64,000 nucleotides of DNA, taken from NCBI GenBank assembly GCA_038210275.1, contig JBBQWV010000014.1:5930-69929 (forward strand). Reading direction: 5' to 3'. A model generated the notes under the pieces. The model saw nothing but the letters and a program-made list of their open reading frames with translations. It had not been told where the DNA came from and did no database searches. The DNA comes from Candidatus Kapaibacterium sp. (GTDB lineage: Bacteria > Bacteroidota > Ignavibacteria > Palsa-1295). Below, piece by piece: positions 13,535 through 61,775 of the stretch. Positions within the stretch are counted from its first letter, which is position 1. Every line of letters begins with the position of its first letter. The position numbers and the translations under genes were made by a program.

Positions 13535-15199
13535 ATGATTGACGAAACAAACACATCGCCTGAACAGGCAGAGGCTGAGCCAAATATCAATGCTTCTGAT
13601 GCTGCGACGGCTCCTCCCCCTCGGGACATTATCGCAGAGCGATTAGCTCAGCGCATGAAGGAGCGCGGAGAGCAGAAAGCAGCCGAACCCGCAACTGCGG
13701 ATGAGCCTGTTTCCGAGGCGCCTAAATTAGAGCGTAAAATTCTGAGTTTTGATCCGCCTGCTGCCGAAATAATTGTTGAAAAAGAGAGTCCGGAGCCAAC
13801 GCCAATTTCTGAATCCATTGCAGAGGTTACAGAATCTATTGAATCTTCAACGCCGATAGCATCTACAGATGCTCCACTGGTACTTAGTCCTCGCGAAGAT
13901 CGTCCAAAACCTGAGAGAGATCGCGGCAGAAATCGCGACCGCAATGATCGCCGTCCGCCTCGTGAACCACGAGCTGAGAGAACAGGCGATTCTGCTAATG
14001 CTGAAGTAGTGCGACAGCAAGCACCTCGCCAACCTCGTCCCGAACGCCCTGAAAGAGTTGAACGACCTGCAAGAACTGAAAGACCTGATCGGACTCCGAG
14101 AGAGGCAAAATCTACAGTTCCAAAAACATCTGATAATGCATTCGTCCGCGCAAGATCTCTTGCATCGAAGCTCGGAGTATCCGTTGTTATCCCGCTTTAT
14201 AATGAGCAGGATTCATTGCGCGAATTGACGGCTGCGCTCCGCGAAGAATTATTTAATCTTTGTGAAAAAAATTACGAGATCATCTATATCAATGATGGCT
14301 CAACTGATCGCTCACCGGAGATACTAAAAGATATTGTTGCAGGAACATCGAAAGTCGTTTCTCTGAGTTTCAGAAGTAACCAAGGAAAATCCGCAGGACT
14401 ATCTGTCGGATTTAAAGAAGCGAAATACGGAATCGTCATTACGATGGATGCGGACTTGCAGGATGATCCGAAAGAGCTTGTGAATCTTATTGCAAAGCTC
14501 GATGAAGGTTACGATCTAGTTTCAGGTTGGAAGAAAAAGCGTCATGACCCGATCTCAAAAACGCTTCCGTCAAAGTTTTTTAATAATGTAACGAGTTTCT
14601 TTAGCGGAATCAAGCTCCATGATTTTAATTGCGGCTTAAAGGCTTACCGCAAGCAAGTCATTGATCAGCTTGATGTCTATGGCGAAATGCATCGCTATCT
14701 GCCTGCGCTTGCGCATTGGCAGGGCTTTCGTGTTACGGAGATTCCTGTTACCCACCATCCACGCCGATTTGGAAAATCCAAATTCGGATCAAGCCGTTTT
14801 TTCAAAGGATTCTTAGACTTAATATCAATCGTGTTTACAAATCGCTTCGGCAAACGCCCACTTCATCTCTTTGGCTCGATCGGCACAGTTTTTTCGCTCA
14901 TCGGCTTAGGCATAAATATATATGTTACCATCGAATGGACGCATGGAATTGCGCTTTCCAATCGTCCGATCTTGCTTCTTGGCATCTTGCTCATGATGCT
15001 CGGAGTCCAGCTTATCTCCATTGGATTACTTGGCGAGATGATCGTCAAGAATACTGCAAGGGGACATGACTTGGCAGTGATCAAAGATAAACGCCCGCCG
15101 CGTCAAGGACCAAGACCGGGTGAAGCAGCTCGTCCGCCAAGACCACAAGGTGGAAGGCCTGATGATCGTCGCAGAGGACCTGCTCCGAACCGTCCGTAA
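13535..15199 (+). CDS. Family-2 glycosyltransferase (polyprenyl-phosphate sugar transferase, DPM1/ArnC-like) with ~200-aa disordered N-terminal extension and Arg/Pro-rich C-terminal tail
   Basis: The GT2 core runs VSVVIPLYNEQDSL...YEIIYINDGSTDRS...ITMDADLQDDP and is followed by two C-terminal TM helices. The N-terminal 200 aa are low-complexity P/E/R/A with RPERPERVERPARTERPDRTPRE-type repeats. Confidence 0.85.
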   Translation: MIDETNTSPEQAEAEPNINASDAATAPPPRDIIAERLAQRMKERGEQKAAEPATADEPVSEAPKLERKILSFDPPAAEIIVEKESPEPTPISESIAEVTESIESSTPIASTDAPLVLSPREDRPKPERDRGRNRDRNDRRPPREPRAERTGDSANAEVVRQQAPRQPRPERPERVERPARTERPDRTPREAKSTVPKTSDNAFVRARSLASKLGVSVVIPLYNEQDSLRELTAALREELFNLCEKNYEIIYINDGSTDRSPEILKDIVAGTSKVVSLSFRSNQGKSAGLSVGFKEAKYGIVITMDADLQDDPKELVNLIAKLDEGYDLVSGWKKKRHDPISKTLPSKFFNNVTSFFSGIKLHDFNCGLKAYRKQVIDQLDVYGEMHRYLPALAHWQGFRVTEIPVTHHPRRFGKSKFGSSRFFKGFLDLISIVFTNRFGKRPLHLFGSIGTVFSLIGLGINIYVTIEWTHGIALSNRPILLLGILLMMLGVQLISIGLLGEMIVKNTARGHDLAVIKDKRPPRQGPRPGEAARPPRPQGGRPDDRRRGPAPNRP

Positions 15200-15202
15200 T
15201 TC

Positions 15203-16285
15203 ATGCCGGCAACTGATCTGGTTATCCATGCCGATTGCCGCCACTTTCGCGGCGATATTCCGTGCAAGCCGCATAAAGATTTCGGTGTGCATTGTGATGG
15301 CTGCGAGTATTACGATCAGATCACGGAGAATATTCTCATTATCAAACTCGGCGCTGCTGGTGATGTTCTGCGCACGACTCCGATCCTTCATAAATTAAAA
15401 GCCGATCATCCGCATGCTCGCATTTGGTGGCTTACACTTTCTCCTGAATTAGTCCCAACTACTCACGTTGATAAAATCCTGAAATGGAGTACGGAAAGCC
15501 TCGAAATTATTTCTGCATTGGAATTTTCCATTCTCATCAATCTCGATAAAGATCACCATGCCTGTGCATTAGCCAATCGCATGATGGCAAAAAAGAAGAT
15601 CGGATTCTTGCTTAGTCCACTGGGCGTTTCCATTCCGGCTGATGCGAATGCGCAGGAGAAATATGAGACTGGTATCTTCGATGATATAAGCCTTGCAAAT
15701 AGGAAATCATATCCCGAAGAATTATTCGAAGTTTGCGGCTATAAATTTTCAGGTGAGAAATATATTATTGATAAACCTGAGGAAATAGATTTTCCAGGTT
15801 TAGATACTTCACGTCCGCTTGTTGGTATGAATACCGGCGCCGGAATCCGCTGGACATCACGCCTCTGGGCAACGGAGCATTGGGCTGATCTTGCAAAAAA
15901 ACTTCACGCAAGCGGATATAACGTCGTTCTCCTCGGCGGTCATGATGAAGATGGACGGAATAAAGAAATTCAGAATCTTTCAGGAGGCGCGGCGCAATAT
16001 CTTGGATATTTTCCTCTGAAAACTTTTGTCTCGCTTGTCAATAAATGCGAGACAATTATTTCCGGAGTTACAATGGCATTTCATATTGCCGTCGCTCTAG
16101 AAAAGAAGATCGTGCTCATCAATAACATCTTCAATAAATATGAATTCGGCGATCTTTACGATCTTGGCGAGATCATCGAACCCAATAAACCCTGCATCTG
16201 CTACTTCCGCGGAACCTGCATAAACCCTGATTATTTCTGTTTAGATCATCTGCCAGTGGAGAAAGTACTAGCGGCGGTGAAGTAG
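15203..16285 (+). CDS. Family-9 glycosyltransferase (ADP-heptose:LPS heptosyltransferase-like) with N-terminal Cys4 motif
   Basis: ILIIKLGAAGDVLRTTPILHKLK is a typical GT9 N-terminus. The gene starts 4 nt after the GT2 stop. The N-terminus reads HADCRHFRGDIPCKPHKDFGVHCDGCEYYD, which is a C-x10-C-x9-C-x2-C pattern. Confidence 0.75.
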   Translation: MPATDLVIHADCRHFRGDIPCKPHKDFGVHCDGCEYYDQITENILIIKLGAAGDVLRTTPILHKLKADHPHARIWWLTLSPELVPTTHVDKILKWSTESLEIISALEFSILINLDKDHHACALANRMMAKKKIGFLLSPLGVSIPADANAQEKYETGIFDDISLANRKSYPEELFEVCGYKFSGEKYIIDKPEEIDFPGLDTSRPLVGMNTGAGIRWTSRLWATEHWADLAKKLHASGYNVVLLGGHDEDGRNKEIQNLSGGAAQYLGYFPLKTFVSLVNKCETIISGVTMAFHIAVALEKKIVLINNIFNKYEFGDLYDLGEIIEPNKPCICYFRGTCINPDYFCLDHLPVEKVLAAVK

Positions 16286-16343: not shown

Positions 16344-16778
16344 TTATTTCTTTTTGCTCGGCGAAACAATATTTGCAACACCTGTTGCAAGTGTATCGAG
16401 TCCACCGACGATAGCATCTCTCATTCTGCCAAAACTTCCGACTGCTTCATCTTTTTCTTCGCTCATTTGAGTTTTAAGCGCCGTCGCACGTGCTTTGATA
16501 GCTTGGCGTAGTTTCATATCAGCTTTATAATGCGGGTTCGCTTTCATCATCCTAGCATCATACGCATCAACAGAATCCTGAAGCGCCTGGATCTTCATAT
16601 TTGCATCAGCCTTAAAAGCCTTCCATTGCTCGATCTGAGCTTTGAGAGAATCTTTTGGTGAAGGAGTTGACATGGCAACAGTATCCTTCATTTCACCGGA
16701 TTGATCAGTTTTTTTCGCACATCCAGCGACAAACACAGATGCGGTAAATAGAACGAGAAACAAATGAGTGAATTTCAT
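16344..16778 (-). CDS. Small helical lipoprotein, function unknown
   Basis: It has a signal peptide with lipobox (VFVAGC), and the body is rich in charged and Ala residues. Confidence 0.6.
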   Translation of the reverse strand: MKFTHLFLVLFTASVFVAGCAKKTDQSGEMKDTVAMSTPSPKDSLKAQIEQWKAFKADANMKIQALQDSVDAYDARMMKANPHYKADMKLRQAIKARATALKTQMSEEKDEAVGSFGRMRDAIVGGLDTLATGVANIVSPSKKK

Positions 16779-16910: not shown

Positions 16911-19193
16911 CTACAGCACCCGCAAATTCGCGAACTTCAACATCAGATTCTTTCTACCGTGCTTGGAGAAATCTACTACAGCTTTTGCTTTATCGCCACG
17001 ACCGGAGACTTCGATTATCCTACCTTCGCCGAAAATTTCGTGAGTGACTCTTGCACCTCTGCGCAAGCCGCCGGAAGTTGGTTCGATCTGCGAATAGGCT
17101 TCGGGTGCCTCCTCTTGTGCAAAGGGATTATAGTTGCGCGGCTCTTTTCTTGCAGCAAATGTTCTCCCGTTGATCGTGCTTGAGCCGCTGAACATACTCG
17201 TCGAAAAAATATCCTCTCTTGCCTGAGTATCTTCAGAAGGGCTGCGAAGTTTTGTGCCGTAGCTTGTCGTATGCTCGGTCACGCCTGATTGTGAAATTTC
17301 ACTGATAAATCGCGAAGCCATCGCCGATGTATATTCGCCATACTTCAATCTGTTCTTCGCATACAAAATGTAACACTTCTTCATTGCTCGGGTGATGCCA
17401 ACATACATCAGGCGGCGTTCTTCTTCGATTGAGAAATCATCAAACGAAGTATTCGGATTCGGAAAAAGTCCTTCTTCAAGTCCGGTAAGAAAGACGACGG
17501 GAAATTCCAAGCCCTTCGCAGCATGAAGCGTCATGAGCGTGACGACATTCTTTGTGCCATCTATCTTATCCACATCGCTCATCAGTGAAATTTCTTCTAA
17601 GAATGATTCAACCGTTGCATCTTCATTCTCCTGAAAATATTCGGTGATCGCTGAAAGAAATTCCCGGACGTTCTCGTAGCGCACAAGTGATTCAGGAGTA
17701 TTCTCCGATTTTAATTCCACGAGAATTCCCGTATCATCAATAAGTGAGCGAAGTAATTCGCTTGGCGAAAGCTCACTTCTTAACCGCGAATATTTTGCGA
17801 TGAGCTGCGAAAATTCTTTCAGCTTTGTGGTAGCGCGCTGTTGCAGATTCGGAATGAATTCGGGAGTTGCCATGACATCGAGCATCGTCGCTCCGCGTTC
17901 GCGGGCGAATTGCGCAAGCTTGGTGATCGTCACATCGCCGATGCCGCGGGCAGGGAAGTTGATGACGCGCATTAAAGATTCGCTATCCGACGGATTAACG
18001 ATCAACCGAATATAGGCAAGTGAATCCTTAATTTCTTTTCGCTTATAAAATGCAGTGCCACCGACAATGGTATAGGGAATGCCTTGCCGCCTGAACGCAT
18101 CTTCTATTGCGCGGCTTTGCGCATTAGTACGATAGAGAATTGCGAACTGCGACAGCGTATATTTTTCTTTGCGAATTTCATCTTCGATCGTGCGGACAAC
18201 TGTTGCGCCTTCTTCGCGCTCATCCGAGCATTCCATGATGCGGACAACTTCGCCTTTCGGATTTTTCGTGAACAGCGTTTTCGGGATCTGTCCCGAATTA
18301 TTTTTTATCAGCGCATCGGCAGTTGCAAGGATATTTCCTGTAGAGCGATAATTTTGTTCGAGGCGGAAAAGTTTTGGATTCGGGAAGTCGCGCTCGAAAT
18401 CCAAAATATTTTTTATGTCGGCGCCGCGGAAAGCATAGATCGACTGCGCATCGTCGCCGACGACCGTAAGATTATTATGAAAGCCCGAAAGCATCTTCAC
18501 GATCATATACTGTGCGCGGTTCGTATCCTGATACTCATCGACAAGCACGTAACGGAATTTGCGCTGATAACTTTCGAGCACTTCTTTATGATGCGCCAGA
18601 AGTTCGATCGTCTTGATAAGCAAGTCGTCGAAATCCATTGCATTCGCGGCTTTGAGCTGCTTTATATATTCGGGATACACTTCTGAAACCTTCTCTGCGA
18701 AATAATCGCGTGCAAGATTTGCATACTCATCGGGCGAAATAAGCTGATTTTTTGCGCTTGATATACGGCTGCGGACGGCATTGGGATTGACCTGATCGCG
18801 TGGAATGCGAAGCTGCTCCATGATGCGCTTAATCAGCGAAAGAGAATCGTCGCTATCATAAATGCTGAAGCTTGACGTATAACCAAGCTGCACGGCATGA
18901 CGCCGCAGCATCCTCGCAAAGACGGAATGGAACGTGCCCATCCAAAGTTCGCGGATATATTCATCGCCAAGCATTGCGCCGATACGCTCCTTCATTTCGC
19001 CGGCAGCTTTATTGGTAAAGGTCAGCGCAAGGATCTCCCACGGACGGTTGCCTTGCTCGAGCAAGTAGGCGATGCGCGTCGTCAAAACCCGCGTCTTGCC
19101 CGAACCCGCACCGGCAATGATCATTGTCGGTCCATCGGAGCCGGTAACGGCTTCAAGCTGCGCAGGATTAAGTCCTGTTAAAAGTTTTGACAT
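16911..19193 (-). CDS. pcrA: ATP-dependent DNA helicase PcrA/UvrD/Rep family
   Basis: The N-terminus reads LNPAQLEAVTGSDGPTMIIAGAGSGKTRVLT. UvrD helicase motifs I-VI are present, and the protein is 760 aa. Confidence 0.93.
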   Translation of the reverse strand: MSKLLTGLNPAQLEAVTGSDGPTMIIAGAGSGKTRVLTTRIAYLLEQGNRPWEILALTFTNKAAGEMKERIGAMLGDEYIRELWMGTFHSVFARMLRRHAVQLGYTSSFSIYDSDDSLSLIKRIMEQLRIPRDQVNPNAVRSRISSAKNQLISPDEYANLARDYFAEKVSEVYPEYIKQLKAANAMDFDDLLIKTIELLAHHKEVLESYQRKFRYVLVDEYQDTNRAQYMIVKMLSGFHNNLTVVGDDAQSIYAFRGADIKNILDFERDFPNPKLFRLEQNYRSTGNILATADALIKNNSGQIPKTLFTKNPKGEVVRIMECSDEREEGATVVRTIEDEIRKEKYTLSQFAILYRTNAQSRAIEDAFRRQGIPYTIVGGTAFYKRKEIKDSLAYIRLIVNPSDSESLMRVINFPARGIGDVTITKLAQFARERGATMLDVMATPEFIPNLQQRATTKLKEFSQLIAKYSRLRSELSPSELLRSLIDDTGILVELKSENTPESLVRYENVREFLSAITEYFQENEDATVESFLEEISLMSDVDKIDGTKNVVTLMTLHAAKGLEFPVVFLTGLEEGLFPNPNTSFDDFSIEEERRLMYVGITRAMKKCYILYAKNRLKYGEYTSAMASRFISEISQSGVTEHTTSYGTKLRSPSEDTQAREDIFSTSMFSGSSTINGRTFAARKEPRNYNPFAQEEAPEAYSQIEPTSGGLRRGARVTHEIFGEGRIIEVSGRGDKAKAVVDFSKHGRKNLMLKFANLRVL

Positions 19194-19340
19194 CAGTAAT
19201 TATTGGCACACACATCGAAAATTGAGATTCCCTAACAAACATTGAGATGCGAAAATAACAGAATTATTTTCGGAAGCGGGGAATTCTTAATTATTATGGG
19301 GTAGGGGTATTATTGTAAAGAGACTGCTTTCCAAAAAAAT

Positions 19341-20584: not shown

Positions 20585-21217
20585 CTAACGACTGCCCGTA
20601 TCCTTCCGTACTACGATCGGAGCTTGCGGCGGCATACTTAGTTGACTATTCGGTGTGGAGAATGTCGGGGCGTTGCTGGAATTTTCGAAGGTGTTTGTGG
20701 GTGCGTCAATGATCGGAAGAAGAATTCTGTAGTTGACGAGATCCTGATCGCTTTCGAAGCCATGCCCGCGAGTGATGCGTCCGGATTTTTCGGAAATTTT
20801 GACAAATGCATCGGAGTGAAGTTTGTGTGTGCCGTTATTCCATAGCAAAGAATCGGTTTGCACAAGCGTCCCCGAATCGCTGAGGACTTTGACACTGTCA
20901 TACGCCGTCATGTTCTTCGTGTTGTCGTCAATATAGGCGCGACGTGAAGTCAGGACGGATGAATGATTACTTTCGCGATCAAAAAAATCCACGCGCACAC
21001 TGGAATCCAACATCGTATAACGCTTCTGCTCAAAAACGCGAACGCCAATAGCATTCATCACGGCACGAATTTTTCCTTCGCTGGAAAATGCCATGCGCGT
21101 ATGAGCGCTTGTCTGCGACGGCATTTCTTCCGTTGATACAAGAGGTGCAGTGCTTGGCTTGACTTCGTTGGTTGCACAGGAAGCGAGGAGGAAGAGGGGT
21201 GTGATAAAAAATGTCAT
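20585..21217 (-). CDS. lptC: LptC-like periplasmic protein (LPS export), lipoprotein-type signal
   Basis: After start correction to MTFFITPLFLLASC, the length (about 210 aa) and position immediately downstream of kdsD match the kdsD-lptC arrangement. The sequence similarity to LptC is weak. The track ORF start at 21346 reads through a family-1 repeat. Confidence 0.5.
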   Translation of the reverse strand: MTFFITPLFLLASCATNEVKPSTAPLVSTEEMPSQTSAHTRMAFSSEGKIRAVMNAIGVRVFEQKRYTMLDSSVRVDFFDRESNHSSVLTSRRAYIDDNTKNMTAYDSVKVLSDSGTLVQTDSLLWNNGTHKLHSDAFVKISEKSGRITRGHGFESDQDLVNYRILLPIIDAPTNTFENSSNAPTFSTPNSQLSMPPQAPIVVRKDTGSR

Positions 21218-21324
21218 TGCGAGAAATCGCGAAGCGACACCGAAGCAATCTAAAAATCCAAAGTTTACCAATACTTTTAAGATTTTAGATTGCCAAGTCG
21301 GGTTAAAGCCCTCCTCGCAATGAC
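21213..21324. repeat. Family-1 composite element: two units in head-to-head inverted orientation (~112 bp, MITE-like) between kdsD and lptC
   Basis: The element reads GTCATTGCGAGAAATCGCGAAGCGACACCGAAGCAATCTAAAAA...TTTTAGATTGCCAAGTCGGGTTAAAGCCCTCCTCGCAATGAC. Confidence 0.75.
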
Positions 21325-21342
21325 ATGTTAATGAATTGTTCT

Positions 21343-22338
21343 TCAATTTATCCCTGCTTTCACGATATCATGCAAATGTATCATTCCGATAACGATGCCG
21401 GCTCCATCCACGACCGGAAGCTGCATGACTTTCGGATTGGTATCTTCCATGAGGTGTAGCGCATCGAAGGCAAGAATATCGGCAGTCGTCGTCTTTGGAG
21501 ATGCTGCCATGAGTTCGGCAGCAGTGACTTTGCGGGTATCTAACTGCTCATGCGATTGAAAAAATCGTCGGAGATCACCATCGGTTACGATGCCCAGAAG
21601 TTCCCCGCTTTCGCCGATCACACATGCTGCACCAAACCGTTTGCCGGAGATTTCCTGCATAATGGAATTCAGTGATGAGTCTTTTTTGATACGCGGAATA
21701 TTGTCGCCGCTTACCATCAGATCGCGAACGTGCATCGTCAACTTTCTTCCAAGCGCTCCGCCGGGATGAAGTTTTGCAAAATCTTCACTGGTAAAATTCC
21801 GTGCTTCCAAGAGCGCAATAGCAAGCGCATCGCCTATAACAAGCTGTGCCGTCGTCGAAGAAGTCGGCGCGAGATCATGGGGGCACGCTTCTTCTTTTAT
21901 GATCGGATAAAGCACTACGCCATTAGATTTCTTCGCAGCATTAGCAAGCCGCGAAGTTGAAGACGAAGTGATCGCAATAATTGGAACGATGGAATTCAAG
22001 AGAGAAGTCAGTTCGTCGGATTCTCCACTTTTCGAAAGTATTATCATCACATCATCTGACGATACTAATCCAATATCGCCATGTGCGGCTTCACTCGGGT
22101 GAAGAAAAATTGCAGGAGTGCCGGTGGAAGTCAACGTGGATGCGGTCTTGCGGGCTATATGTCCGGATTTCCCCATACCGCTGACGATGACTCTACCTTT
22201 GCACGAAAGCAAAATATCACAAGCTTTTGCGAAATCAAGTTCATCGAGTGAGTCAATAGTTTGCTGTAAGGCAAGCGTTTCGACAGCGAAGGTTCGCTTT
22301 GCGGACTTGAGATATGATTCTGAGTTCTTGCTATGCAC
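21343..22338 (-). CDS. kdsD: Arabinose-5-phosphate isomerase (KpsF/GutQ/KdsD; SIS + tandem CBS domains)
   Basis: The SIS motif reads GRVIVSGMGKSGHIARKTASTLTSTGTPAIFLHPSEAAHGDIG. The C-terminus carries a CBS pair (IPRIKKDSSLNSIMQEI...GIVTDGDLRR). Confidence 0.9.
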   Translation of the reverse strand: MHSKNSESYLKSAKRTFAVETLALQQTIDSLDELDFAKACDILLSCKGRVIVSGMGKSGHIARKTASTLTSTGTPAIFLHPSEAAHGDIGLVSSDDVMIILSKSGESDELTSLLNSIVPIIAITSSSTSRLANAAKKSNGVVLYPIIKEEACPHDLAPTSSTTAQLVIGDALAIALLEARNFTSEDFAKLHPGGALGRKLTMHVRDLMVSGDNIPRIKKDSSLNSIMQEISGKRFGAACVIGESGELLGIVTDGDLRRFFQSHEQLDTRKVTAAELMAASPKTTTADILAFDALHLMEDTNPKVMQLPVVDGAGIVIGMIHLHDIVKAGIN

Positions 22339-22340
22339 TG

Positions 22341-23081
22341 TTATTTTCCGAATAGTTTTTGGAATATACTCTTCTTCGGTTTCACGGTTTCAATGATGAT
22401 TCCTGTTGTATCGAATTTGCGATGTGCTTTTTTATCGTATTCAAGCAGCGCTTTGATATATTCGGTATCGGTGAAATCATCAACCATCTCGAAGAACGAA
22501 GCTGGATGACTGATTAGTTTGGCATCGCGAATATGCTTTGTCCTCAAAAGCTCGTCATAAAAGTTGGTAAGCGGAAGAAGTTGGTTGAATCCTGAACTCT
22601 CATGATGCAGCCAAAGCACTTTTTTTGCAACACTAATTGCAAGAATATATTTTAGTGAGCCATTCGTATCTTTGATCGCAATTTCACGAACTTTCTGCGA
22701 TGTTGCGGGGCAAGGATCACCGCTTTTCCAATAGGAATAACACCACAGATTCGTGATCTGCGGCGAATCAGGGATTGGGAAAACTCCGGAAAACTGAACT
22801 TCAAGCTGTCCATCAATATTGTGATCATGAATGCTGATGGCAAGCGGCAAATTATTGATCAAGCATTCTCCATACCCTACAACAGGCGGCATACCGAGTG
22901 TGAGATCGATCGGTGAAATTATTTTATCAATGAGCAGATTTCCTTCGCCCCATCTTCCATCACCGATGACTTGCGAGGTTTTAATAAAATCATGATATGG
23001 TTTGTACGCCGGAATATTTTCCGGAAGAAGCCGAAAAAGTAAATCTAGTTCTTGTGAAGAAAGTGATCGAGGATAGATCAT
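22341..23081 (-). CDS. Uncharacterised 246-aa protein embedded in the KDO operon
   Basis: Its stop is 2 nt from the kdsD start and its start overlaps the kdsA stop, so it is translationally coupled. I recognise no motif; it has no HAD DxDGT signature and so is not KdsC. Confidence 0.7.
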   Translation of the reverse strand: MIYPRSLSSQELDLLFRLLPENIPAYKPYHDFIKTSQVIGDGRWGEGNLLIDKIISPIDLTLGMPPVVGYGECLINNLPLAISIHDHNIDGQLEVQFSGVFPIPDSPQITNLWCYSYWKSGDPCPATSQKVREIAIKDTNGSLKYILAISVAKKVLWLHHESSGFNQLLPLTNFYDELLRTKHIRDAKLISHPASFFEMVDDFTDTEYIKALLEYDKKAHRKFDTTGIIIETVKPKKSIFQKLFGK

Positions 23082-23087
23082 CGAAAA

Positions 23088-23918
23088 TTACTGTTCAGTA
23101 AATCTGAATTGCAAAAGCGAACGGAGCAAAGCTTCAAGTTCACCAAGCGGAAGTTGGGACTGGGCATCGCTCTTAGCTTTCGCCGGATCGGGATGCGTTT
23201 CGATGAAAAGTCCGTCAATGCCGACAGCCATTGCAGCGCGGGCAAGCGGTGCGATGAATTGGCGATTGCCGCCGCTGATTCCATTTTGTGATGGTCGCTG
23301 AACGGAATGCGTAGCATCATAAATGATGGGCGAACCAAATTCCTTCATGATCTCAAGTGAACGAAAATCAACAATAAGATCGCCATAACCAAACGACGTT
23401 CCGCGTTCAGTAAGCAAAATATTATTGTTGTCTTTGCTTGTGACTTTTTCTTTTGCAAATTTCATATCAAATGGCGACATAAACTGTGCTTTCTTGATAT
23501 TGATCACTTTTCCTGTCTCGGCAGCCGCTTCAAGAAGATCGGTTTGCCTGGCAAGAAAAGCAGGTATCTGCAAAACATCACAAACTTCCGCAGCTAATGC
23601 CGCTTCACCTGGAAGATGAATATCTGTTAGGATAGGAAGAGAGAATTCTTTTTTAATATCGGCAAGATACGAAAGAGCTTTTTCGTCGCCGATACTTGAA
23701 ATGCTTGTGCCGCTTGTCCGATTGGCTTTGCGATAGGAAGATTTAAATATAAAATTCACCGGCAATACGCTTTGAATTCTACAAAGTTCAGTTGCAACTT
23801 GCTGAAGCAATTCTTTCGATTCGACCAAGCATGGTCCCGCAATAACAGGAAATGGAACGGCTCCAAAAAAAGAGATGCTTCGGTTGTCCGGCGATATAAT
23901 GGTGACGTTTTCTTTCAT
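23088..23918 (-). CDS. kdsA: 2-dehydro-3-deoxyphosphooctonate aldolase (KDO-8-phosphate synthase)
   Basis: PVIAGPCLVESKELLQQVATEL...ANRTSGTSISSIGDEKAL...TDIH is the KdsA/DAHP-synthase-family core, and the protein is 276 aa. Confidence 0.92.
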   Translation of the reverse strand: MKENVTIISPDNRSISFFGAVPFPVIAGPCLVESKELLQQVATELCRIQSVLPVNFIFKSSYRKANRTSGTSISSIGDEKALSYLADIKKEFSLPILTDIHLPGEAALAAEVCDVLQIPAFLARQTDLLEAAAETGKVINIKKAQFMSPFDMKFAKEKVTSKDNNNILLTERGTSFGYGDLIVDFRSLEIMKEFGSPIIYDATHSVQRPSQNGISGGNRQFIAPLARAAMAVGIDGLFIETHPDPAKAKSDAQSQLPLGELEALLRSLLQFRFTEQ

Positions 23919-24157: not shown

Positions 24158-24868
24158 TCACACGAGCATTTCGCGCACGGCTTCTTCTGTTCTTTGCATC
24201 AGATCAATCTCGCGTTCACGATCATTCTCATATTTATAAGAAGTTTCTAACGGAGCGCCAATCGAAACCGAAATAATTTTATTCGAAGAGGGAAGTTTCG
24301 AAGTTCTTGGCATTAATTCGAATGAGCCTTTGATCGCAATGGGTATAACCTTCGCGCCGCTTTCATACGCCATGTGAAATGCACCGCGTTTGAATGACTG
24401 TAGCTCTCCTGAATCTGTTCGTGTACCTTCAGGAAAGAGAAGAACCGATGCACCGCTTTGAATGATTTCTGTAGCTTTTGCTAAAGTGATTTTCGTTTTA
24501 GATACTTTTGAACGATCAATAATAATCATTGGACTTAGTAGTAGCGCCCAACCCCAGATGGGAATTCGGGTGAGTGTATGTCGCAGAATCAAGCGAACAT
24601 CAGCAGGAATTGCAGCGAAAAGAATTGGAATATCAGTATAGCTTGAGTGATTAGCAACGAAAACGTAATGCTCTTTTTTCAGAATATTTGACGCTCCCTG
24701 CACTTGAAGTTTCACTCCGAAAAGCAGAAGAAAAGATTTGGACCAGATTCGGGCAAGCCATAAATAAGCACTGCCGCTCCTATCAAGAAGAGCGGCAGGG
24801 ATTGAGATAACTGAAAGAACGATCGTTACTATAATAAAGACGATCGTTGCAACAATACTGCGAGTCAC
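24158..24868 (-). CDS. plsC: 1-acyl-sn-glycerol-3-phosphate acyltransferase
   Basis: It has an N-terminal TM helix, the HX4D motif (ANHSSYTD) and FPEGTR. Confidence 0.85.
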   Translation of the reverse strand: MTRSIVATIVFIIVTIVLSVISIPAALLDRSGSAYLWLARIWSKSFLLLFGVKLQVQGASNILKKEHYVFVANHSSYTDIPILFAAIPADVRLILRHTLTRIPIWGWALLLSPMIIIDRSKVSKTKITLAKATEIIQSGASVLLFPEGTRTDSGELQSFKRGAFHMAYESGAKVIPIAIKGSFELMPRTSKLPSSNKIISVSIGAPLETSYKYENDREREIDLMQRTEEAVREMLV

Positions 24869-25477
24869 TTATTTAGCCGCTGAAGCGATTCCCGAATAAT
24901 TAATGCTATTAGCGACAGATTTCGCTTCATCAAGAGTAGCGCCATTTTCCGCTTCGGTGATGACGAAGATACGATCATTCACTACCACGCCGATCGTACC
25001 TTGATTGGAGTTCTTCTTCCAATCAATCCAACCCGGATTGCCATTAAATTTTTCCGAGTGCAATGACTGGTCATTCGTTTCAAGGTTCATGGTCAATAGT
25101 GCTGAATACTTTCCGGATAAACCCGCAATGTTGTTGTAATCAAGTATGGATACCTTGATTTGCTTTTCACCATTTTGGTAGGTTTGATTGGCATGAGAAT
25201 ATTTTGATCCAGCCATTTCCATTTCCATTGTTTCAGGTTCACCTTTCGCGGTATAGCCTGATACGGAAGGAAGAAAACCTGCAAGAGTTTTTGCGGGGAC
25301 TGCAACGCCGGGAGTTTTATTTGCGCCACCACCTGCAGCATTCTGAGCCATTTGCTGCATACTCTTTGACATTTGCTCTGCAGCTTTCTGAGCATCATCT
25401 TCTTTCTTTGAGCAGCCTGAAATAAAGATTATTGCTGCAATTGCAACTGCGAAAATACTGAACTTGGATGTTTTCAT
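24869..25477 (-). CDS. Lipoprotein of unknown function (202 aa)
   Basis: It has a signal peptide and lipobox (IFISGC), and its start is adjacent to the plsC stop. Confidence 0.6.
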   Translation of the reverse strand: MKTSKFSIFAVAIAAIIFISGCSKKEDDAQKAAEQMSKSMQQMAQNAAGGGANKTPGVAVPAKTLAGFLPSVSGYTAKGEPETMEMEMAGSKYSHANQTYQNGEKQIKVSILDYNNIAGLSGKYSALLTMNLETNDQSLHSEKFNGNPGWIDWKKNSNQGTIGVVVNDRIFVITEAENGATLDEAKSVANSINYSGIASAAK

Positions 25478-25561
25478 TGTCGTGATAGATAGTAGTGAAA
25501 ATTGTCGTACGTTTTGATCCTCAAAAATACGATGGAAAATCTTTTGATTCGAGAAAATCGC

Positions 25562-26314
25562 TTACTTCAATCCAACTTGATCGAGCGCTAATTTCCCAAG
25601 ATAAAAAAGCATCATACCGAGAAAAACAAGAATCGGAGCTTTGCGTCCGCGAGTTTTATTTATTTCCGGAATGAGGTCACACGCACCGACATACAGTGCA
25701 GCTCCTGCGCTGAAAGCGAAAAGAAATCCGATCAATTCTTCATTGAATGTGACAAAGAAAAAGACAAGAAGCGCGCCGAGAATTGTGGAAATGCCAAGGG
25801 TAAACCCAGCATTCATCGTTTCTTTCTTTGAATGATTTCCGAGCATCATCACACTTGCAACCGTCAATCCCTCCGGAATTTTATGAAGAAGTACGGCAAC
25901 ACAAATGAGAATTCCCATTGTCGGCTTTGCGCTTGTTACTGCTGCGATTGCCATACCATCAAAGAATGCGTGAAGTGTGAGTCCGCCAACAGCACCTAAT
26001 GCTGAGGAATGCGAAACTCCGGCATGCTGATGAGTTTCTTCGCCAAAATGAAAATGCTGAACGAGTGTATGCTCGAAAAAATGCAAGACGCTAAAACCGA
26101 GCAGCATTGCAATGACCGCATGATCGGGATTATTTGTCAGACGAAAACTTTCCGGAATGAGATCAACGAAGACAAGAGCCAGAAGAAATCCTGCGCCGAG
26201 AGCCAGCAACGTCCTTTCCCAGCTATGGGGAAAACGTTTTGCTCGGAGTGCAAGCATTCCGCCGCCGATCTGCGCGCCTGCTGCAATAATGCTGAGTATG
26301 ATACCGAGATACAC
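25562..26314 (-). CDS. ZIP-family divalent metal (zinc) transporter, ZupT-like
   Basis: It has multiple TM helices, a His-rich loop (HHFHFGEETHQHAG), and the HKIPEG-like motif LLHKIPEGL. Confidence 0.85.
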   Translation of the reverse strand: MYLGIILSIIAAGAQIGGGMLALRAKRFPHSWERTLLALGAGFLLALVFVDLIPESFRLTNNPDHAVIAMLLGFSVLHFFEHTLVQHFHFGEETHQHAGVSHSSALGAVGGLTLHAFFDGMAIAAVTSAKPTMGILICVAVLLHKIPEGLTVASVMMLGNHSKKETMNAGFTLGISTILGALLVFFFVTFNEELIGFLFAFSAGAALYVGACDLIPEINKTRGRKAPILVFLGMMLFYLGKLALDQVGLK

Positions 26315-26427
26315 TTCTGCTAATTAAAATTAAAAATGTCGAATACTCGCTGTGGCGAGAAAATTAAAAATGGTAACGTGTAAATCCAGAATGAGGCAAA
26401 ATAATCTCAGAAATCGGTTGAATCCCT

Positions 26428-27750
26428 TTAATCACGGTTCAGACGTTTTTTTTCTTTCAGAAAATTCTTTCCGTCTTCAATGCCGCGAAGGAACATCGCA
26501 GATAATGAGAGTGGAACTTCACGGATCATGATGCGATAGGATAGGATTGCTTGTAATAGCATGGAAATGCAGAATGCAATTGCCGCTCCAACAGTATGGA
26601 GAAGTGGCAGTAAGGTCACGGCGAGAATCACATTAACGATAAGCGAAGCAAGAATAGTCTGAAAAACTTCTTTCACTTTTCCCATTCCAACAAGCGCAGA
26701 CATACCAACCATCGTGATGGGCAGAATAAAACCGCTTGCAATTAGTACACGGAAGACATTAACGGAATCATCAAACTTTCCTTTATAAAGTATCTGAAAA
26801 ATAAGGGGAGCAAAAATAATAAGAAGTATTGAGAGTGGGATCATCAAGATATAGAGAAAGCTTGTTGTCTTCTCAATAATTTTTTTCAGTGTTGCGAAAT
26901 CACCTGCAGCATAATATTTACTTGAAGCAGGGAAAACAAAAATGCCTTGAGTATCACGAAGCACATCAAAGCCCTTAAAAAAGAATTTTGCAACTTGGTA
27001 ATTGGCGAGCGCTTCAACCCCAAGAAAAGCCGGAACAAGCAAACTGTCAAGATTTTGCTGAAAGACATGGACTGAACCGGTTGCAGTTTGGTAACGAGTA
27101 AAATGAAAAATCTTTTTCAACATTGTGCGAGAGAAACGTATCCGCCAACTCAGATCCTTTCGTGCAAGAAAAAGTGAGAGCAATGAACTGCATGCGCCGG
27201 TTATGATCGTGATGAAGATTACATCACTTGCTGTATGCAATTTATCCATGAACGCGTAGATCGTCACGACGATACTTGATCCACCAAAATTAATAAGATC
27301 GGCAAAGAATAAATTCTTTGTATGAAATCGCATTTGAAAAATCTTGCTGGTGATGACTCGCGGAATGGTAACGATGACAAGAATAATCAGGCTGGGGATG
27401 AGGTCAGGAAGTTCGGGGCTATTAAGCAGATAAGAAAATGTACCCGGAAAAACAATAAGGAGCGACAATGAAATCAGAAGAAAAGCAAAAAAGAGAAGTG
27501 AGGTTGCCGTCAGAAGTTCTTGAAGATCATTTGCTGTATCCACTCCGAATTTAACGATTGCCTGCAATGCGAAACTATCAGCAAAAGTGAAGATCATTCC
27601 GAAGATCACTTGAAAGAGCGCAAGTTCACCGCTTTCACTTTTTGGAAGAATCTTGAAAACAAGGATCGTCATCACCACACCATAGACGGCTGGCAGAAGC
27701 TTCGTTGCAAAACCCCATGCACCTTTTTCTAAGTGCGCACTGAATTTCAT
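26428..27750 (-). CDS. MOP-superfamily polysaccharide/oligosaccharide flippase (Wzx-like)
   Basis: It is 440 aa with about 12-14 predicted TM helices, and it lies immediately upstream of the GT4 gene. Confidence 0.7.
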   Translation of the reverse strand: MKFSAHLEKGAWGFATKLLPAVYGVVMTILVFKILPKSESGELALFQVIFGMIFTFADSFALQAIVKFGVDTANDLQELLTATSLLFFAFLLISLSLLIVFPGTFSYLLNSPELPDLIPSLIILVIVTIPRVITSKIFQMRFHTKNLFFADLINFGGSSIVVTIYAFMDKLHTASDVIFITIITGACSSLLSLFLARKDLSWRIRFSRTMLKKIFHFTRYQTATGSVHVFQQNLDSLLVPAFLGVEALANYQVAKFFFKGFDVLRDTQGIFVFPASSKYYAAGDFATLKKIIEKTTSFLYILMIPLSILLIIFAPLIFQILYKGKFDDSVNVFRVLIASGFILPITMVGMSALVGMGKVKEVFQTILASLIVNVILAVTLLPLLHTVGAAIAFCISMLLQAILSYRIMIREVPLSLSAMFLRGIEDGKNFLKEKKRLNRD

Positions 27751-27753
27751 TAA

Positions 27754-28755
27754 TTATTTAACAAGTTCTAAAAGTTTTTTTGCGCGATTCTCAATATCGA
27801 ATAATTTTACATGTTCACTGCATTGCTTTCGCTTTGCAATATCGGCAGTAAAACTTTTTCTTATCGCTTCGGCAACGCTTTGGATATTTTTACGATCAAT
27901 GATAAATTCCGTCCCGCCGGTTACTTCTTCAAGAGAAGGGACATTCGATACAACAGGAATGCAGCCGCAACTCATTGATTCAGCAGTTGCAACGCCGAAT
28001 GTTTCATCAATAGAAAGCTGGCAGTATGCAGAAGCGGTATGATAATAATTAAGAAGCTCCTCGTACTTGATCGGTCCCTCGACAATGGTTACATTCTTCA
28101 GATCTTTTGCTTCATTGCGTGCATGTTCCAAAGCAGGACCTCGAATACCGATGAGATCGAACTCAACATCCGGCATCACTTTGGCTGTCTCAAGAAATAC
28201 ATCGATCCCTTTTAAGATGTAATCGAGATACGTCACTAACTGCGTGACGGTCAGCGCGCGCTTTGCTCTTGGATCATCCGAAAATGGAAAGCGTTTTATA
28301 TCAACAGCGTTGTAGATTACGGTGCTTGGTGCATGGTGTTTCGAATTCGTATCAAGCAGATGCTGTGCGTAATTGCTAACAGGAAATACGTGCGTTGCAA
28401 AGCGATGAGTATTGCGAACAAGAAACCACCGGAAGGGGCGAACCCGCGCACCGCTTTTTACTTCAGGAGTATAGGTGACGTCGAAGCCGCCTGCGACAAC
28501 ATACACTTTTTTGCGAAGCAGACGGGCGATGATCGTTGGAACAAGGGTGTAATAATCGGCGAACCAGAAAAAAAGTACATCGGAGCCGAAGAGCGAAAAG
28601 AGAATTTGAAATTCTAACTTAATAAGACTTGTCGCTGTACTAAAACCACGTTTAACATTGGCATCAACGATCTTGAGTTTATGCTTTCGGCGCAGAATTT
28701 CAATGTCATTCTGCACAAAACTCGATTGCGCTGGTCCGACGAAGGTGATAGTCAT
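27754..28755 (-). CDS. Family-4 glycosyltransferase (GT-B, retaining)
   Basis: The C-terminus has the GT4 E-x7-E region (SIDETFGVATAESMSCGCIPVVSNVPSLEEV). Confidence 0.85.
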   Translation of the reverse strand: MTITFVGPAQSSFVQNDIEILRRKHKLKIVDANVKRGFSTATSLIKLEFQILFSLFGSDVLFFWFADYYTLVPTIIARLLRKKVYVVAGGFDVTYTPEVKSGARVRPFRWFLVRNTHRFATHVFPVSNYAQHLLDTNSKHHAPSTVIYNAVDIKRFPFSDDPRAKRALTVTQLVTYLDYILKGIDVFLETAKVMPDVEFDLIGIRGPALEHARNEAKDLKNVTIVEGPIKYEELLNYYHTASAYCQLSIDETFGVATAESMSCGCIPVVSNVPSLEEVTGGTEFIIDRKNIQSVAEAIRKSFTADIAKRKQCSEHVKLFDIENRAKKLLELVK

Positions 28756-28777: not shown

Positions 28778-29269
28778 TTAATTAACGTCACCAAAGAGAA
28801 GCTTATCACCGATCGGATAATAATGAAAACTTGCCATTTTTTTCTTGTTGCCTTTAATGAGATTGATCTGGTAATGCATCAATTGTCCCAAAGGAGTATC
28901 CTTGCTTTTAAAAACGGCAAAATATTCTTGATGCATTTCCGGATAATCAGTTAGCATCTTCTTAATTTTCTCCACAACATCATGGACGTGTTTTGCATCA
29001 TCGGGATTAGTAAGTGAAGCGGCATGATTCCAATTCACAACTTTTCCGGTATCGCGGCAGGCAATTTCGGCAGCCGCGCTATCAAGATTTCCTGCAAGCG
29101 CGTATTTTTTCAAATTAGTAATATGCGCAAACATCTCATCCGAAATAGAATCGCGCACCATTTGAGAGAGCATGACGACATCTTCGCGTGGCATTTTTCC
29201 CATTCCGCCTTGTGCGTAAAGAGTTGACGAAAGAAAAATTGCAGAGACAATAATAAATAAGTATTTCAT
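28778..29269 (-). CDS. Secreted protein of unknown function (~163 aa)
   Basis: I trimmed the start to MKYLFIIVSAIFLSSTLYAQ, which is a signal peptide. The longer ORF start reads through a family-1 repeat. Confidence 0.5.
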   Translation of the reverse strand: MKYLFIIVSAIFLSSTLYAQGGMGKMPREDVVMLSQMVRDSISDEMFAHITNLKKYALAGNLDSAAAEIACRDTGKVVNWNHAASLTNPDDAKHVHDVVEKIKKMLTDYPEMHQEYFAVFKSKDTPLGQLMHYQINLIKGNKKKMASFHYYPIGDKLLFGDVN

Positions 29270-29288
29270 AATTGTGTTCAAGTAAAGT

Positions 29289-29331
29289 GTCATTGCGAGC
29301 TGGGCTTTAGCCCTGCGTGGCAATCTAAAAA
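29289..29331 (+). repeat. Family-1 repeat unit (single) between divergent genes
   Basis: The unit reads GTCATTGCGAGCTGGGCTTTAGCCCTGCGTGGCAATCTAAAAA. Confidence 0.7.
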
Positions 29332-29464
29332 CTTGATCATTGGCAGTACGCTCAGGTTTAATAGATACCAAGCCAGTAATGATACGAATAATTGTAAATT
29401 TGATACGGCGACCTTTTCATATTTAATGAATGTTTCATCGCCTCAGAATAAGATAATGTTTTTT

Positions 29465-31102: not shown

Positions 31103-32122
31103 ATGACTAAAAAACTCATTCCCCTCTCCGCTTTGCTACTCGCAGGCGGAATGTTTCTGAACTCCTGCTCGAAGGACATGGATTCCCCGACAGCAATTAT
31201 GCCGATGAAAACGACAATAAGTGCTGATGCACATCCTGCTATCACTTTCGTCGGAACCACGACAAGTCACAGCACGACATATAACACGATTGCCGTTATG
31301 GATTCTGACGGAACAGATCAGGCAAATGTTTACACTGCTGCCTCATCATCGACGATTCTCAATTGGCCAACGTGGTCGGGCGATGGTAGCAATATCGCAT
31401 TCAAAGATGGGAGCTACACATTAAAGAAAGTTGCAGTATCGGTTGTAAGCGGCAAAGCCGTTGGCGGTACCGTAACGACTCTCGTAACAACAAACACCGG
31501 ATCACCGATTCTCTGTGCTGCCTACTCTCCATCAACTACAAGCTCAAGTATCGCTTATGGAACATATACGTCTTCATCATTGACATCTACAGTCTATACA
31601 ATCCCTTCGTCCGGCGGAAGTGCAACACAGATCTATTCACTCACTGGATGCGGGATTTATGGAGTAACATGGAACCCGGATGCTTCAAAGATCGCAGTCT
31701 ATTGTCGGTATTGGAAGCCCCGCAACGGGGGGACGCAAGATACTGTTGATTACACTTGTATCAAAATTCTTAATACAAGCGGTACATTGCTTGATAGCAT
31801 CGGCATTGATAAAGCCAAAGGATTATTTGGCAGCTTTGAATGGTCGCGTACCGGTGCCGACAACTTCGCATATACAGCGATGAATGTCAGTTCCAACGGA
31901 CTGGAATTCGTATCCGGGTCTGACAGTATCTATACTCAGGGCGCATCGGCATCATCCACTCCTACGTTTGTTACTACAGGCACATATCCCACTTGGTCAC
32001 CTTCGAACTGGAAGTTGGCGTATCTGCCACATTCAGGCGGCGGCACGAAGTCGATCATCATCGCTTCGGGGACGACAGCGACGATCTCAACTTCCGGCGG
32101 ACACATGAACTGGAAAAGGTGA
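31103..32122 (+). CDS. Ser/Thr-rich lipoprotein with PD40/TolB-like beta-propeller repeats
   Basis: Lipobox LNSC. The repeats WPTWSGDGSNIAF, VTWNPDASKIAVY and YPTWSPSNWKLAY resemble PD40 W-x-P-DG motifs. Confidence 0.55.
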   Translation: MTKKLIPLSALLLAGGMFLNSCSKDMDSPTAIMPMKTTISADAHPAITFVGTTTSHSTTYNTIAVMDSDGTDQANVYTAASSSTILNWPTWSGDGSNIAFKDGSYTLKKVAVSVVSGKAVGGTVTTLVTTNTGSPILCAAYSPSTTSSSIAYGTYTSSSLTSTVYTIPSSGGSATQIYSLTGCGIYGVTWNPDASKIAVYCRYWKPRNGGTQDTVDYTCIKILNTSGTLLDSIGIDKAKGLFGSFEWSRTGADNFAYTAMNVSSNGLEFVSGSDSIYTQGASASSTPTFVTTGTYPTWSPSNWKLAYLPHSGGGTKSIIIASGTTATISTSGGHMNWKR

Positions 32123-37025: not shown

Positions 37026-37568
37026 ATGAAAACACGACACTTCGCATCATTTCTCTTGATTCTATTGGTTTCCGGTACGATCTTTTTTGCACGAACAGGT
37101 TACGCTCAACGTGCGACGGCAAAAAATAACGACATATCCGTTGACTTTATTGATTACCTTGTTAATAATACATTTCACTTGCAATATGAATGGAAATTGA
37201 CTTCCACTTCAAGTTTCCTTGTAAGATTAGCGTATGTGACGAAGAGTGAGAATCCAGGTCCGACTACTGCTCTTGGAGCCGGCGCTGCATGGCGTTTGTA
37301 CATTATTGATAGCCGTGCGCTGCAAGGTTTTAGTGTAGCTCCGGCTGTTGATCTCTTTTTCTTTAAAAATACACCGCTTGGTAAAAGCAATATTTTGTTC
37401 TCTGTTGGCGCAGACGGAGGGTACAAGTTTTTCTTCGATCAGATCACTCTCGAACCGACACTCGGTGTGAGGATCGGTTTTGCTCCTGGAAATAACCTTC
37501 CGCCGGGCGAGAGTAATTTTACCGGTTTATATGTGGTGCCATCGATCTATCTTGGCTACGCTTGGTAG
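37026..37568 (+). CDS. Small outer-membrane beta-barrel protein (paralogue 1 of 3)
   Basis: It has a signal peptide and an alternating hydrophobic pattern, and it ends in the aromatic tail ...IYLGYAW. Confidence 0.5.
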   Translation: MKTRHFASFLLILLVSGTIFFARTGYAQRATAKNNDISVDFIDYLVNNTFHLQYEWKLTSTSSFLVRLAYVTKSENPGPTTALGAGAAWRLYIIDSRALQGFSVAPAVDLFFFKNTPLGKSNILFSVGADGGYKFFFDQITLEPTLGVRIGFAPGNNLPPGESNFTGLYVVPSIYLGYAW

Positions 37569-38164
37569 TTACGGGCGGCGAGAAGTTTAGCATCATTGAA
37601 ATGATGAATCGAATAACTCTTTGGCGTTCGAAGCATAAGATTCTGATATTGGTGCTTTTGGTGATTTCCATTTTTTCTCAAAGTGGAGAATGTCAAACGC
37701 CGGCTGATTCAGTGCAACTTGATAGCAGCCGTCAATTTCATGAACGGCGTGGGGCAGGTGGTTTTGAAGCCGGGAATTCATGGCGCAGCGATGGCTTTCA
37801 CGGTATATTCTTTCACCTTTTTTACGAGGCTGAAATTGGTAAGGCGTTCTTGAATGCCGGAGCGTTTTCCTATCAGAAGATAAATGATGGCTTTGGCTTT
37901 GATTTTCGCTTGAGGATGCCGTACCTGTTTTATCCCAGCGGAAGTCATACGAATTTTTCACCGCTTGTCGGAGTTAGTTTTACCGTCTGGCCGGTTTACA
38001 AGCCGACAGTTTCAGTCGGGATTCCGTTCGGCTTGGAATATGAATTCCTGATTGATAATTTTCCGAATATTTCTGTGAGCGCGAACGCATCTCCACTCAT
38101 CAATTTGAGTAGTGAAAAGAACACTGTCATCTTTGATCTTCGATTAGGAATACGATTCGACTGA
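37562..38164 (+). CDS. Small outer-membrane beta-barrel-like protein (paralogue 2 of 3)
   Basis: It has a signal peptide and Gly/aromatic-rich beta-strand motifs (GFGFDFRLRMPYLFY, GIPFGLEYEF). It overlaps the previous gene by 7 nt. Confidence 0.45.
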   Translation: MVVTGGEKFSIIEMMNRITLWRSKHKILILVLLVISIFSQSGECQTPADSVQLDSSRQFHERRGAGGFEAGNSWRSDGFHGIFFHLFYEAEIGKAFLNAGAFSYQKINDGFGFDFRLRMPYLFYPSGSHTNFSPLVGVSFTVWPVYKPTVSVGIPFGLEYEFLIDNFPNISVSANASPLINLSSEKNTVIFDLRLGIRFD

Positions 38165-38166
38165 TT

Positions 38167-38916
38167 ATGATACACACTATTTTACATCGCCATTTTTTTC
38201 GTGCCTGTGTACTGGTTTTGATATGCGCCGGATCAGTTCTCGCGCAAAAATCCGATACGACTCGCAAGCGAATTCCGCGCGAGGAGATCGGTATTGTAAA
38301 AAAGCTGACGGTCATGCCGTATGCAACGATCAGCTATAATATCCAGTCTGGTCAGGCATTTCCGAAAAGCGCACAGGGAATAGGTTACGGTTTCGGACTT
38401 GCATTCGATCTCACCGAAGATAAGCAGCCGGTCGGAGCGTATTTTGATTTCGCCTATCAAGATATGCGAGCACATGCCGCTGACGGCGCTTGCAAGGTTG
38501 TCGGACCTGATACGATCGGAGCTGTTGCAGTCTCTGTTCCGGTGACACATTATTTTTCTTATGCGGTGTTCGAAGGATTTGTAAAACTTCAAACTCTTAA
38601 AAGCAACGGATATTTTCTCATTGGCGGAAGTTTAGGCGTTGCAACTACGGGCTTAACTGTTTCAGAAGGTCCGGGTACGGCAAGTTATTCGGAATGGAAA
38701 ACAGTAGATACCTACCATGAATTGCGTCTTGATATTCGAGCGGGTCTCGGTATTAAGCTGGGGTACATTTCCGGGCATCAACTCGTCTTTGAAGCAAGAT
38801 TCGGATACCCTGTGACAACTGTGCTCGGAGATTATCACGACTTCTGCAATGGCTCGGATGCGCACGGATCGTGGCGGGTAGTGACTCTGCAAGCTAATAT
38901 TGGCTTGCGATTATAA
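38167..38916 (+). CDS. Small outer-membrane beta-barrel-like protein (paralogue 3 of 3)
   Basis: It has a signal peptide and the motifs IGYGFGLAFDL, AYFDFAYQD and LRLDIRAGLGIKLGY. Its start is 3 nt after the previous stop. Confidence 0.5.
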   Translation: MIHTILHRHFFRACVLVLICAGSVLAQKSDTTRKRIPREEIGIVKKLTVMPYATISYNIQSGQAFPKSAQGIGYGFGLAFDLTEDKQPVGAYFDFAYQDMRAHAADGACKVVGPDTIGAVAVSVPVTHYFSYAVFEGFVKLQTLKSNGYFLIGGSLGVATTGLTVSEGPGTASYSEWKTVDTYHELRLDIRAGLGIKLGYISGHQLVFEARFGYPVTTVLGDYHDFCNGSDAHGSWRVVTLQANIGLRL

Positions 38917-55061: not shown

Positions 55062-55182
55062 TTTTGAGTTTTAGGTTATGAGTTTTGAATATGATTATAC
55101 TCATAGCTCAAGATTCTTAAGCGTCCTCGCAACTTCTTGCAGGATAAGGGGTTCTTTAGTGCATGAGTATTATTCGCTAAAG

Positions 55183-61640: not shown

Positions 61641-61775
61641 TTTCAGTTTCTCTCATTGGATATAAAGAGTGGCATTACATTTCGAGTGATGCTGCTCTTT
61701 TGTTATATTGGGTTTTGCAACGCAAATAGCTTCCGAAATTGTTAATCCTCTACTCATTTTTTAAGATCAAAAAGT

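Follow-up and report, generated by a model that had tools for sequence, protein, structure and literature searches.

A conserved non-HAD protein family encoded in the Kdo/Lpt operon of Ignavibacteria- and Kapaibacterium-type Bacteroidota

The window analyzed here, a 64,000-nucleotide stretch of a contig from Candidatus Kapaibacterium sp., carries on its minus strand a compact run of genes for Kdo synthesis and LPS transport. The first of these, kdsA (23088..23918), encodes a 276-amino-acid Kdo-8-P (3-deoxy-8-phosphooctulonate) synthase that matched the NCBIfam models NF003543 (E = 2.1e-109; 364.8 bits, cutoff 242) and TIGR01362 (352.9 bits, cutoff 314) as well as Pfam DAHP_synth_1. The second is the minus-strand ORF singled out by the initial annotation (22341..23081), which opens with an ATG and encodes a 246-amino-acid member of an uncharacterized family without a recognizable fold, referred to here as X. 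It is followed by a gene with a GTG start (21343..22338, minus strand) for a KdsD/KpsF-type arabinose-5-phosphate isomerase of 331 amino acids with a SIS domain and two CBS domains. The isomerase scored 291 bits (E = 6e-87) against the KpsF/GutQ model TIGR00393, above the cutoff of 204, and 317 bits against the strict KdsD equivalog NF008141, under the cutoff of 505. The last gene of the run is lptC-like (20585..21217, minus strand; TIGR04409, E = 8e-15, and Pfam LptC) and yields a protein of 210 amino acids from the ATG at 21217, with the N terminus MTFFITPLFLLASC; the lptC gene call on the identical contig L001 is also 210 amino acids long. Between kdsD and lptC lies an unstranded palindromic intergenic repeat of about 115 nt (21212..21325), defined by motif counts and RNA folding. 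Its terminal motif, TGTCATTGCGAGGAG, occurs in seven copies in the window versus 0.2 expected, those outside the element lying at positions 19340, 20182, 24113, 29288, and 42596, and the element is predicted to fold as a long hairpin (−50.6 kcal/mol, z = −7.5). The repeat looks REP- or MITE-like, and the lptC start codon lies inside its terminal repeat. The order kdsA, X, kdsD, repeat, lptC given by the initial annotation is borne out by the profile matches and the repeat analysis.

The genes on both sides of X are very closely spaced. The kdsA stop codon (TAA, 23090-23088) is separated by a 6-nt spacer, TTTTCG, from the X start codon at 23081, so the overlap with the kdsA stop that had been described does not occur. 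At the other end, the X stop codon (TAA, 22343-22341) lies 2 nt before the kdsD GTG, just as had been reported. No terminator-like site was found beyond background at either the kdsA/X or the X/kdsD junction. Judged from the sequence, X is co-transcribed with kdsD and is probably translationally coupled with it as well. A comparison with the 80% identical homolog at locus L104 gave 39, 22, and 113 nucleotide differences at the first, second, and third codon positions, respectively, and 85 synonymous against 48 nonsynonymous codon changes. This codon-position bias, together with the existence of homolog clusters (42 close and approximately 150 distant) and an AlphaFold2 model with a mean pLDDT of 88.8 (pTM, 0.81), indicates that X is a genuine gene under purifying selection and not a chance ORF.

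The protein itself resembles nothing that we could name. X matched zero families at E ≤ 1 in Pfam-A and NCBIfam, and 32 diverse members of its family gave no consistent Pfam match. There was likewise no match in PHROGs, and the PDB chain sequences matched neither the single sequence (best E value, 0.5) nor the family profile (0.26). The statement that X is without a HAD motif or any other signature thus agrees with the Pfam and NCBIfam scans and with the family alignments. A structure comparison, which had been proposed as a check, found no significant neighbor of the confident AlphaFold2 model in PDB or BFVD, the two fold libraries compared, so a remote structural relative may have escaped notice. 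The X sequence contains no signal peptide and no transmembrane segment, and the protein is predicted to be cytoplasmic.

Several identities were considered for X and set aside. A relation to the WG-containing beta repeat (PF14903) found no Pfam support, and hhalign against the window's own WG-repeat protein returned a probability of 0.4%. Identity with KdsB or another CTP_transf_3 cytidylyltransferase was rejected, as there was no Pfam or NCBIfam match and no fold neighbor of the nucleotidyltransferase alpha/beta type. X also does not belong with the OstA-like beta-jellyroll proteins LptC and LptA, with an LptC/OstA match, a jellyroll fold, and a periplasmic location all lacking. One homolog with 71% identity to X (P0008) carries the JGI label "predicted RecA/RadA family phage recombinase," which neither PHROGs nor Pfam supports; the label is likely an annotation error and could propagate. 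No fusion proteins pointing to a partner of X were found among the homologs. Three long repeat proteins from the profile search (P0161, P0169, and P0189) match only via repeated short beta segments and look spurious.

Conservation within the family is substantial. The most conserved segment, both in alignments A1 and A2 and in an alignment of 206 family sequences, comprises amino acids 157 to 180 (WLHHESSGFNQLLPLTNFYDELLR; 22542..22613, minus strand). Its family consensus reads W-L-H/Y-D/E-x3-G-x-N-x-L-I-P-V-T-N-F-Y-N-E-L-M, and it covers strands beta9 and beta10 and the first C-terminal helix in the AlphaFold2 secondary structure. Within it, W157 is conserved in 97% of the 206 sequences, N166 in 85%, P170 in 96%, T172 in 90%, E177 in 89%, and L178 in 93%. 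Over the whole protein, the 206-sequence alignment, numbered by the window protein, has conserved polar positions at E11, R43, D59, E/D86, S116, R/K132, E133, N166, T/S172, E177, R185, D186, D205, and N216; conserved aromatic residues at Y26, W113, W118 (99%), W157, and Y215; and conserved glycines or prolines at P20, G42, G45, G47, G71, P120, G121, P125, and P170. No His or Cys residue is invariant across the family alignments, and H159/H160 and the Cys residues in the window's clade are clade specific. A CPxC motif at positions 124 to 127 accompanied by a Cys at 150 was seen in 61 of the 206 members (∼30%), and H159 was seen in 116 of them. This Cys3(His) set may be a lineage-specific zinc site, perhaps with H159 included; the window protein has only C124 and H159/H160 of the set (nucleotides 22603-22712, approximately).

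The C terminus of X has a different character. The final residues, 233 to 246 (VKPKKSIFQKLFGK; 22344..22385, minus strand), form a basic, hydrophobic tail, identified by charge and from the AlphaFold2 model. Among the 206 family members, the last 22 amino acids carry a mean net charge of +3.7, versus −4.7 for the body of the protein. A short helix is predicted at residues 239 to 244, with low pLDDT, and the hydrophobic moment of the tail is 0.59 versus 0.53 for shuffled sequences, with 66% of the members exceeding their own shuffle. The tail is a candidate amphipathic helix that could bind a membrane or a partner protein. In having Lys/Arg followed by spaced Phe/Leu/Ile (in X, KPKKSIFQKLFGK), it is reminiscent of C-terminal targeting sequences of the MinD/FtsA type, and the same calculation gave a hydrophobic moment of 0.45 for KPKKSIFQKLFGK of the window protein versus 0.38 for the E. 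coli MinD stretch KKGFLKRLFGG. However, this is a resemblance and not homology, and the moment of the X tail is barely above that of the shuffles.

The family to which X belongs is sizeable and taxonomically confined. A word-indexed search returned 42 homologs. When 1.84 billion cluster representatives were searched exhaustively with a profile, 150 X clusters were returned at E ≤ 1e-3, 123 of them at E ≤ 1e-10, with clusters counted at 50% identity. The homologs from the profile search are mostly 220 to 270 amino acids long. Among the 42 proteins of the word-indexed search, those with names are "Candidatus Kapaibacterium sp." and "Ignavibacteriota bacterium"; further searches, one with profile A2 and one with P0059 as the query, contributed few extra proteins and no additional taxon names. 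Scanning one genome per GTDB species for the motif TN[FY]YNELM yielded 134 confirmed loci. The 80 of these that were listed are all from MAGs, labeled Ignavibacteria, Ignavibacteriae, Ignavibacteriales, Ignavibacterium, Chlorobi type, or unclassified Bacteroidota. NCBI taxonomy places Kapaibacterium within the Bacteroidota, and all labeled family members are from Ignavibacteria- or Kapaibacterium-type Bacteroidota. Literature searches on Kdo and kdsB in Ignavibacteria and on KdsD CBS-domain regulation yielded nothing on X or its family, which is previously undescribed.

To place X in its genomic context, approximately 100 loci were annotated by phmmer and HMM searches with the KdsA, KdsD, and LptC proteins of the window, the X family HMM, and an HMM built from 58 KdsC sequences. 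The kdsD gene adjoins X downstream and on the same strand in 89 of 90 loci. Measured from the X stop codon, the KdsD match begins at a median distance of −1 nt, and in 74 of 83 loci it begins within ±30 nt. Of 92 loci, 65 have a canonical HAD kdsC directly upstream of X, 24 have kdsA there, and 3 have something else; the KdsC proteins encoded beside X show the consensus LLDVDGVxTDG. The majority architecture is thus kdsA-kdsC-X-kdsD-lptC, with an lptA-like gene and lptB coming next at locus L007. The order in the window, kdsA-X-kdsD-lptC, is the minority form, found in all the Kapaibacterium-like relatives (L002-L006 and L096-L104), some Ignavibacteria, and a high-GC clade (L089). The linkage of X to kds genes persists down to 23 to 30% amino acid identity (P0180 and P0040-42). 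Two exceptions were seen. Locus L075 (1-2000) reads kdsC-X-lptC, with no kdsD between X and lptC, and locus L091 (8700-11750) reads DUF4905-YjbQ-X-kdsD-MetH-like, with no kdsA, kdsC, or lptC nearby. Since the X-kdsD pair is retained even there, as it is in 89 of 90 loci, kdsD is the most constant neighbor of X. The association of the X family with kds genes from which the initial annotation started is therefore a conserved one, with same-strand adjacency to kdsA, kdsC, kdsD, or lptC maintained across divergent genomes.

The order of the corresponding E. coli genes is kdsD-kdsC-lptC-lptA-lptB. The X operon is like this E. coli-type locus (yrbG-lptB) in that genes for Kdo synthesis are joined to lptC, lptA, and lptB, as at L007. 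It differs in its order, kdsA-(kdsC)-X-kdsD-lptC, in including kdsA, and in containing X, which is without an E. coli counterpart. Gene content and order indicate a variant of the classical arrangement to which kdsA and one extra conserved gene have been added. In Ignavibacteria- and Kapaibacterium-type Bacteroidota, X is a fixed part of the Kdo/Lpt operon, whose full order is kdsA-[kdsC]-X-kdsD-lptC-lptA-lptB.

As to what X does, the reading that we prefer, at a probability of roughly 40%, is that of a lineage-specific, non-HAD accessory of the Kdo-supply module that acts with KdsD, possibly at the membrane. X would contribute to CMP-Kdo precursor synthesis in partnership with the arabinose-5-P isomerase KdsD; its part could be regulatory or scaffolding, as a subunit, or it could bind an anionic sugar intermediate. 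The Arg, Asp/Glu, and Trp/Tyr positions conserved in the family would fit a binding site for an anionic sugar, with Ru5P, A5P, Kdo-8-P, Kdo, and CMP-Kdo as candidates, or, alternatively, a protein interface. The basic, hydrophobic tail may keep X on the inner side of the cytoplasmic membrane, the place of Kdo consumption. Of these parts, the partnership with KdsD is probable, and the survival of the X-kdsD pair without kdsA and lptC at L091 argues for it; on the other side, L075 keeps X beside kdsC and lptC without kdsD, so the partnership is not absolute. X probably also binds an anionic sugar, to judge by its conserved residues, and it may be located at the membrane by means of its C-terminal tail. 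The fallback suggestion of the initial annotation, another lineage-specific LPS-core function, is compatible with an accessory role of this kind but is unspecific.

The conserved polar residues might just as well belong to a catalytic site. A broader and tentative description makes X an unrecognized component of Kdo or LPS inner-core synthesis with a fold absent from PDB, acting either as a new enzyme or as a membrane tether or regulator, which we hold to be possible but rather improbable. In the former version, X might be a Kdo anomerase that supplies KdsB with beta-Kdo, or it might catalyze a known step as a non-orthologous enzyme; in the latter, it would organize KdsD, KdsA, and KdsC into a metabolon. 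The enzyme version can be put more specifically, and with a similar degree of doubt, as an enzyme for a step not assigned to KdsA through KdsD, for example, the anomerization of Kdo to the beta-pyranose for KdsB, a modification of Kdo or arabinose-5-P, or a non-orthologous CMP-Kdo synthetase. Such an activity is consistent with the roughly one dozen polar residues that are conserved along with Trp/Tyr, a combination found in sites that bind sugar acids or carry out catalysis, and X lies amid three of the four genes for Kdo biosynthesis. No kdsB-like gene was found in the window or in 88 loci, a weak result from a search with an E. coli KdsB query. Moreover, kdsB is commonly unlinked to kdsA and kdsD, so its absence from the flanks of X says little. 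Against an enzyme, no catalytic motif can be recognized in X, its fold is not similar to those of nucleotidyltransferases, mutarotases, or other enzymes, the family has no invariant His or Cys, and X is most tightly associated with kdsD, not with kdsC or kdsB.

Another possible location for the function of X is farther along the pathway. As a cytoplasmic, membrane-peripheral factor for LPS assembly or export, on the Lpt/MsbA/WaaA side, X would act with LptB or with the Kdo transferase. The operon does run on into lptC, an lptA-like gene, and lptB at L007, X directly abuts lptC at L075 with no kdsD in between, and the basic and hydrophobic nature of the tail would suit such a role. However, X keeps kdsD where lptC is absent (L091), and in 89 of 90 loci it is located upstream of kdsD, within the kds block. 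We consider a role on the Lpt side unlikely.

The initial annotation had raised the possibility that X is a non-orthologous Kdo-8-phosphate phosphatase standing in for a missing KdsC, and in a restricted form this could apply to the clades without kdsC. The premise is sound for the locus in hand. The HMM of 58 KdsC sequences detected no kdsC in the 64-kb window at E ≤ 10 among six-frame ORFs of at least 40 amino acids, phmmer with the L007 KdsC detected none either, and Pfam scans of approximately 46 ORFs contained no HAD protein. The same HMM found no kdsC in the flanks of the other kdsC-less loci (up to 8 to 10 kb on each side). X resembles KdsC (TIGR01670/Hydrolase_3) in being a small cytoplasmic protein that holds the slot between kdsA and kdsD/lptC in kdsC-less clusters, and in the window and 23 other loci kdsA abuts X at the point where kdsC sits elsewhere. 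At the level of the family, however, the proposal is unsupported, since a canonical HAD KdsC is encoded directly upstream of X in 65 of 92 loci. With an orthodox KdsC adjacent in about 70% of species, a non-orthologous phosphatase role for X is not expected, and a second gene for one step right beside the first would be superfluous. X is also not a KdsC or HAD protein in its own right: motif I, DxDGV(T), and HAD motifs II to IV are absent from X and the family alignments, there is no Hydrolase_3, HAD_2, or NCBIfam KdsC match, the KdsC HMM misses X, and the model does not have the Rossmannoid alpha/beta core of HAD proteins. No other phosphatase signature or fold was recognized. The kdsC-less clades share no new catalytic residues, and the family has no conserved phosphatase-like motif. 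In addition, E. coli K-12 tolerates transposon insertions in kdsC provided that lptC expression persists (10.1101/237842). An absent kdsC alone therefore demands no replacement enzyme. Family alignments and gene neighborhoods together indicate that X does not replace KdsC, and we regard the phosphatase proposal as very improbable even for the kdsC-less clades. That X is an unrelated passenger hitchhiking in the operon is hardly credible, since its position is kept over approximately 100 loci and at identities as low as 23%, its reading frame overlaps or abuts those of its neighbors, and it is under purifying selection.

The Kdo pathway and the Lpt machinery are antibiotic targets, and to our knowledge the four-enzyme Kdo pathway and its link to Lpt have been regarded as fully enumerated. 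X is a fifth gene fixed in the kds operon of a class-level lineage, and searches of Pfam, NCBIfam, PHROGs, PDB, and BFVD gave it no match. This points to a need, in at least some diderm bacteria, for a further factor in Kdo supply or in the coupling of that supply to LPS assembly. Although few studies have dealt with the lineage, X is a clean candidate for biochemistry, with cultivable hosts such as Ignavibacterium and Melioribacter, and a tempting but wrong annotation as an "alternative KdsC" has been removed.

Other features of the window and of the related loci were noted. Some 30 Ignavibacteria loci have a second gene of the KdsA/DAHP-synthase family about 4 kb downstream of X, beyond the lpt genes, as at L094 (12627-13388) and L099 (12649-13398); it is probably a DAHP synthase paralog. 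Several window ORFs encoding proteins of 144 to 339 amino acids had no Pfam match at E ≤ 1e-3 (16344-16778, 28778-29371, 31103-32122, 37026-38916, 47932-48885, 49474-49923, 52709-53467, and 61754-62356). The ORF at 52709-53467 lies between the ATP synthase delta (52152-52706) and gamma (56338-57249) genes, an interval that also holds two ORFs (53520-56304) left out of the Pfam scan. The kds/lptC block itself sits inside an envelope-glycan cluster of about 15 kb (13535-16285 and 24158-28755) with genes for GT2, a GT9 heptosyltransferase-like protein, a PlsC-type acyltransferase, a predicted lipoprotein, a ZIP transporter, a Polysacc_synt_3 flippase, and GT1. A UvrD gene (16911-19193) lies between lptC and the GT9 gene, and the flanking gene order of the cluster is conserved in L002-L004.
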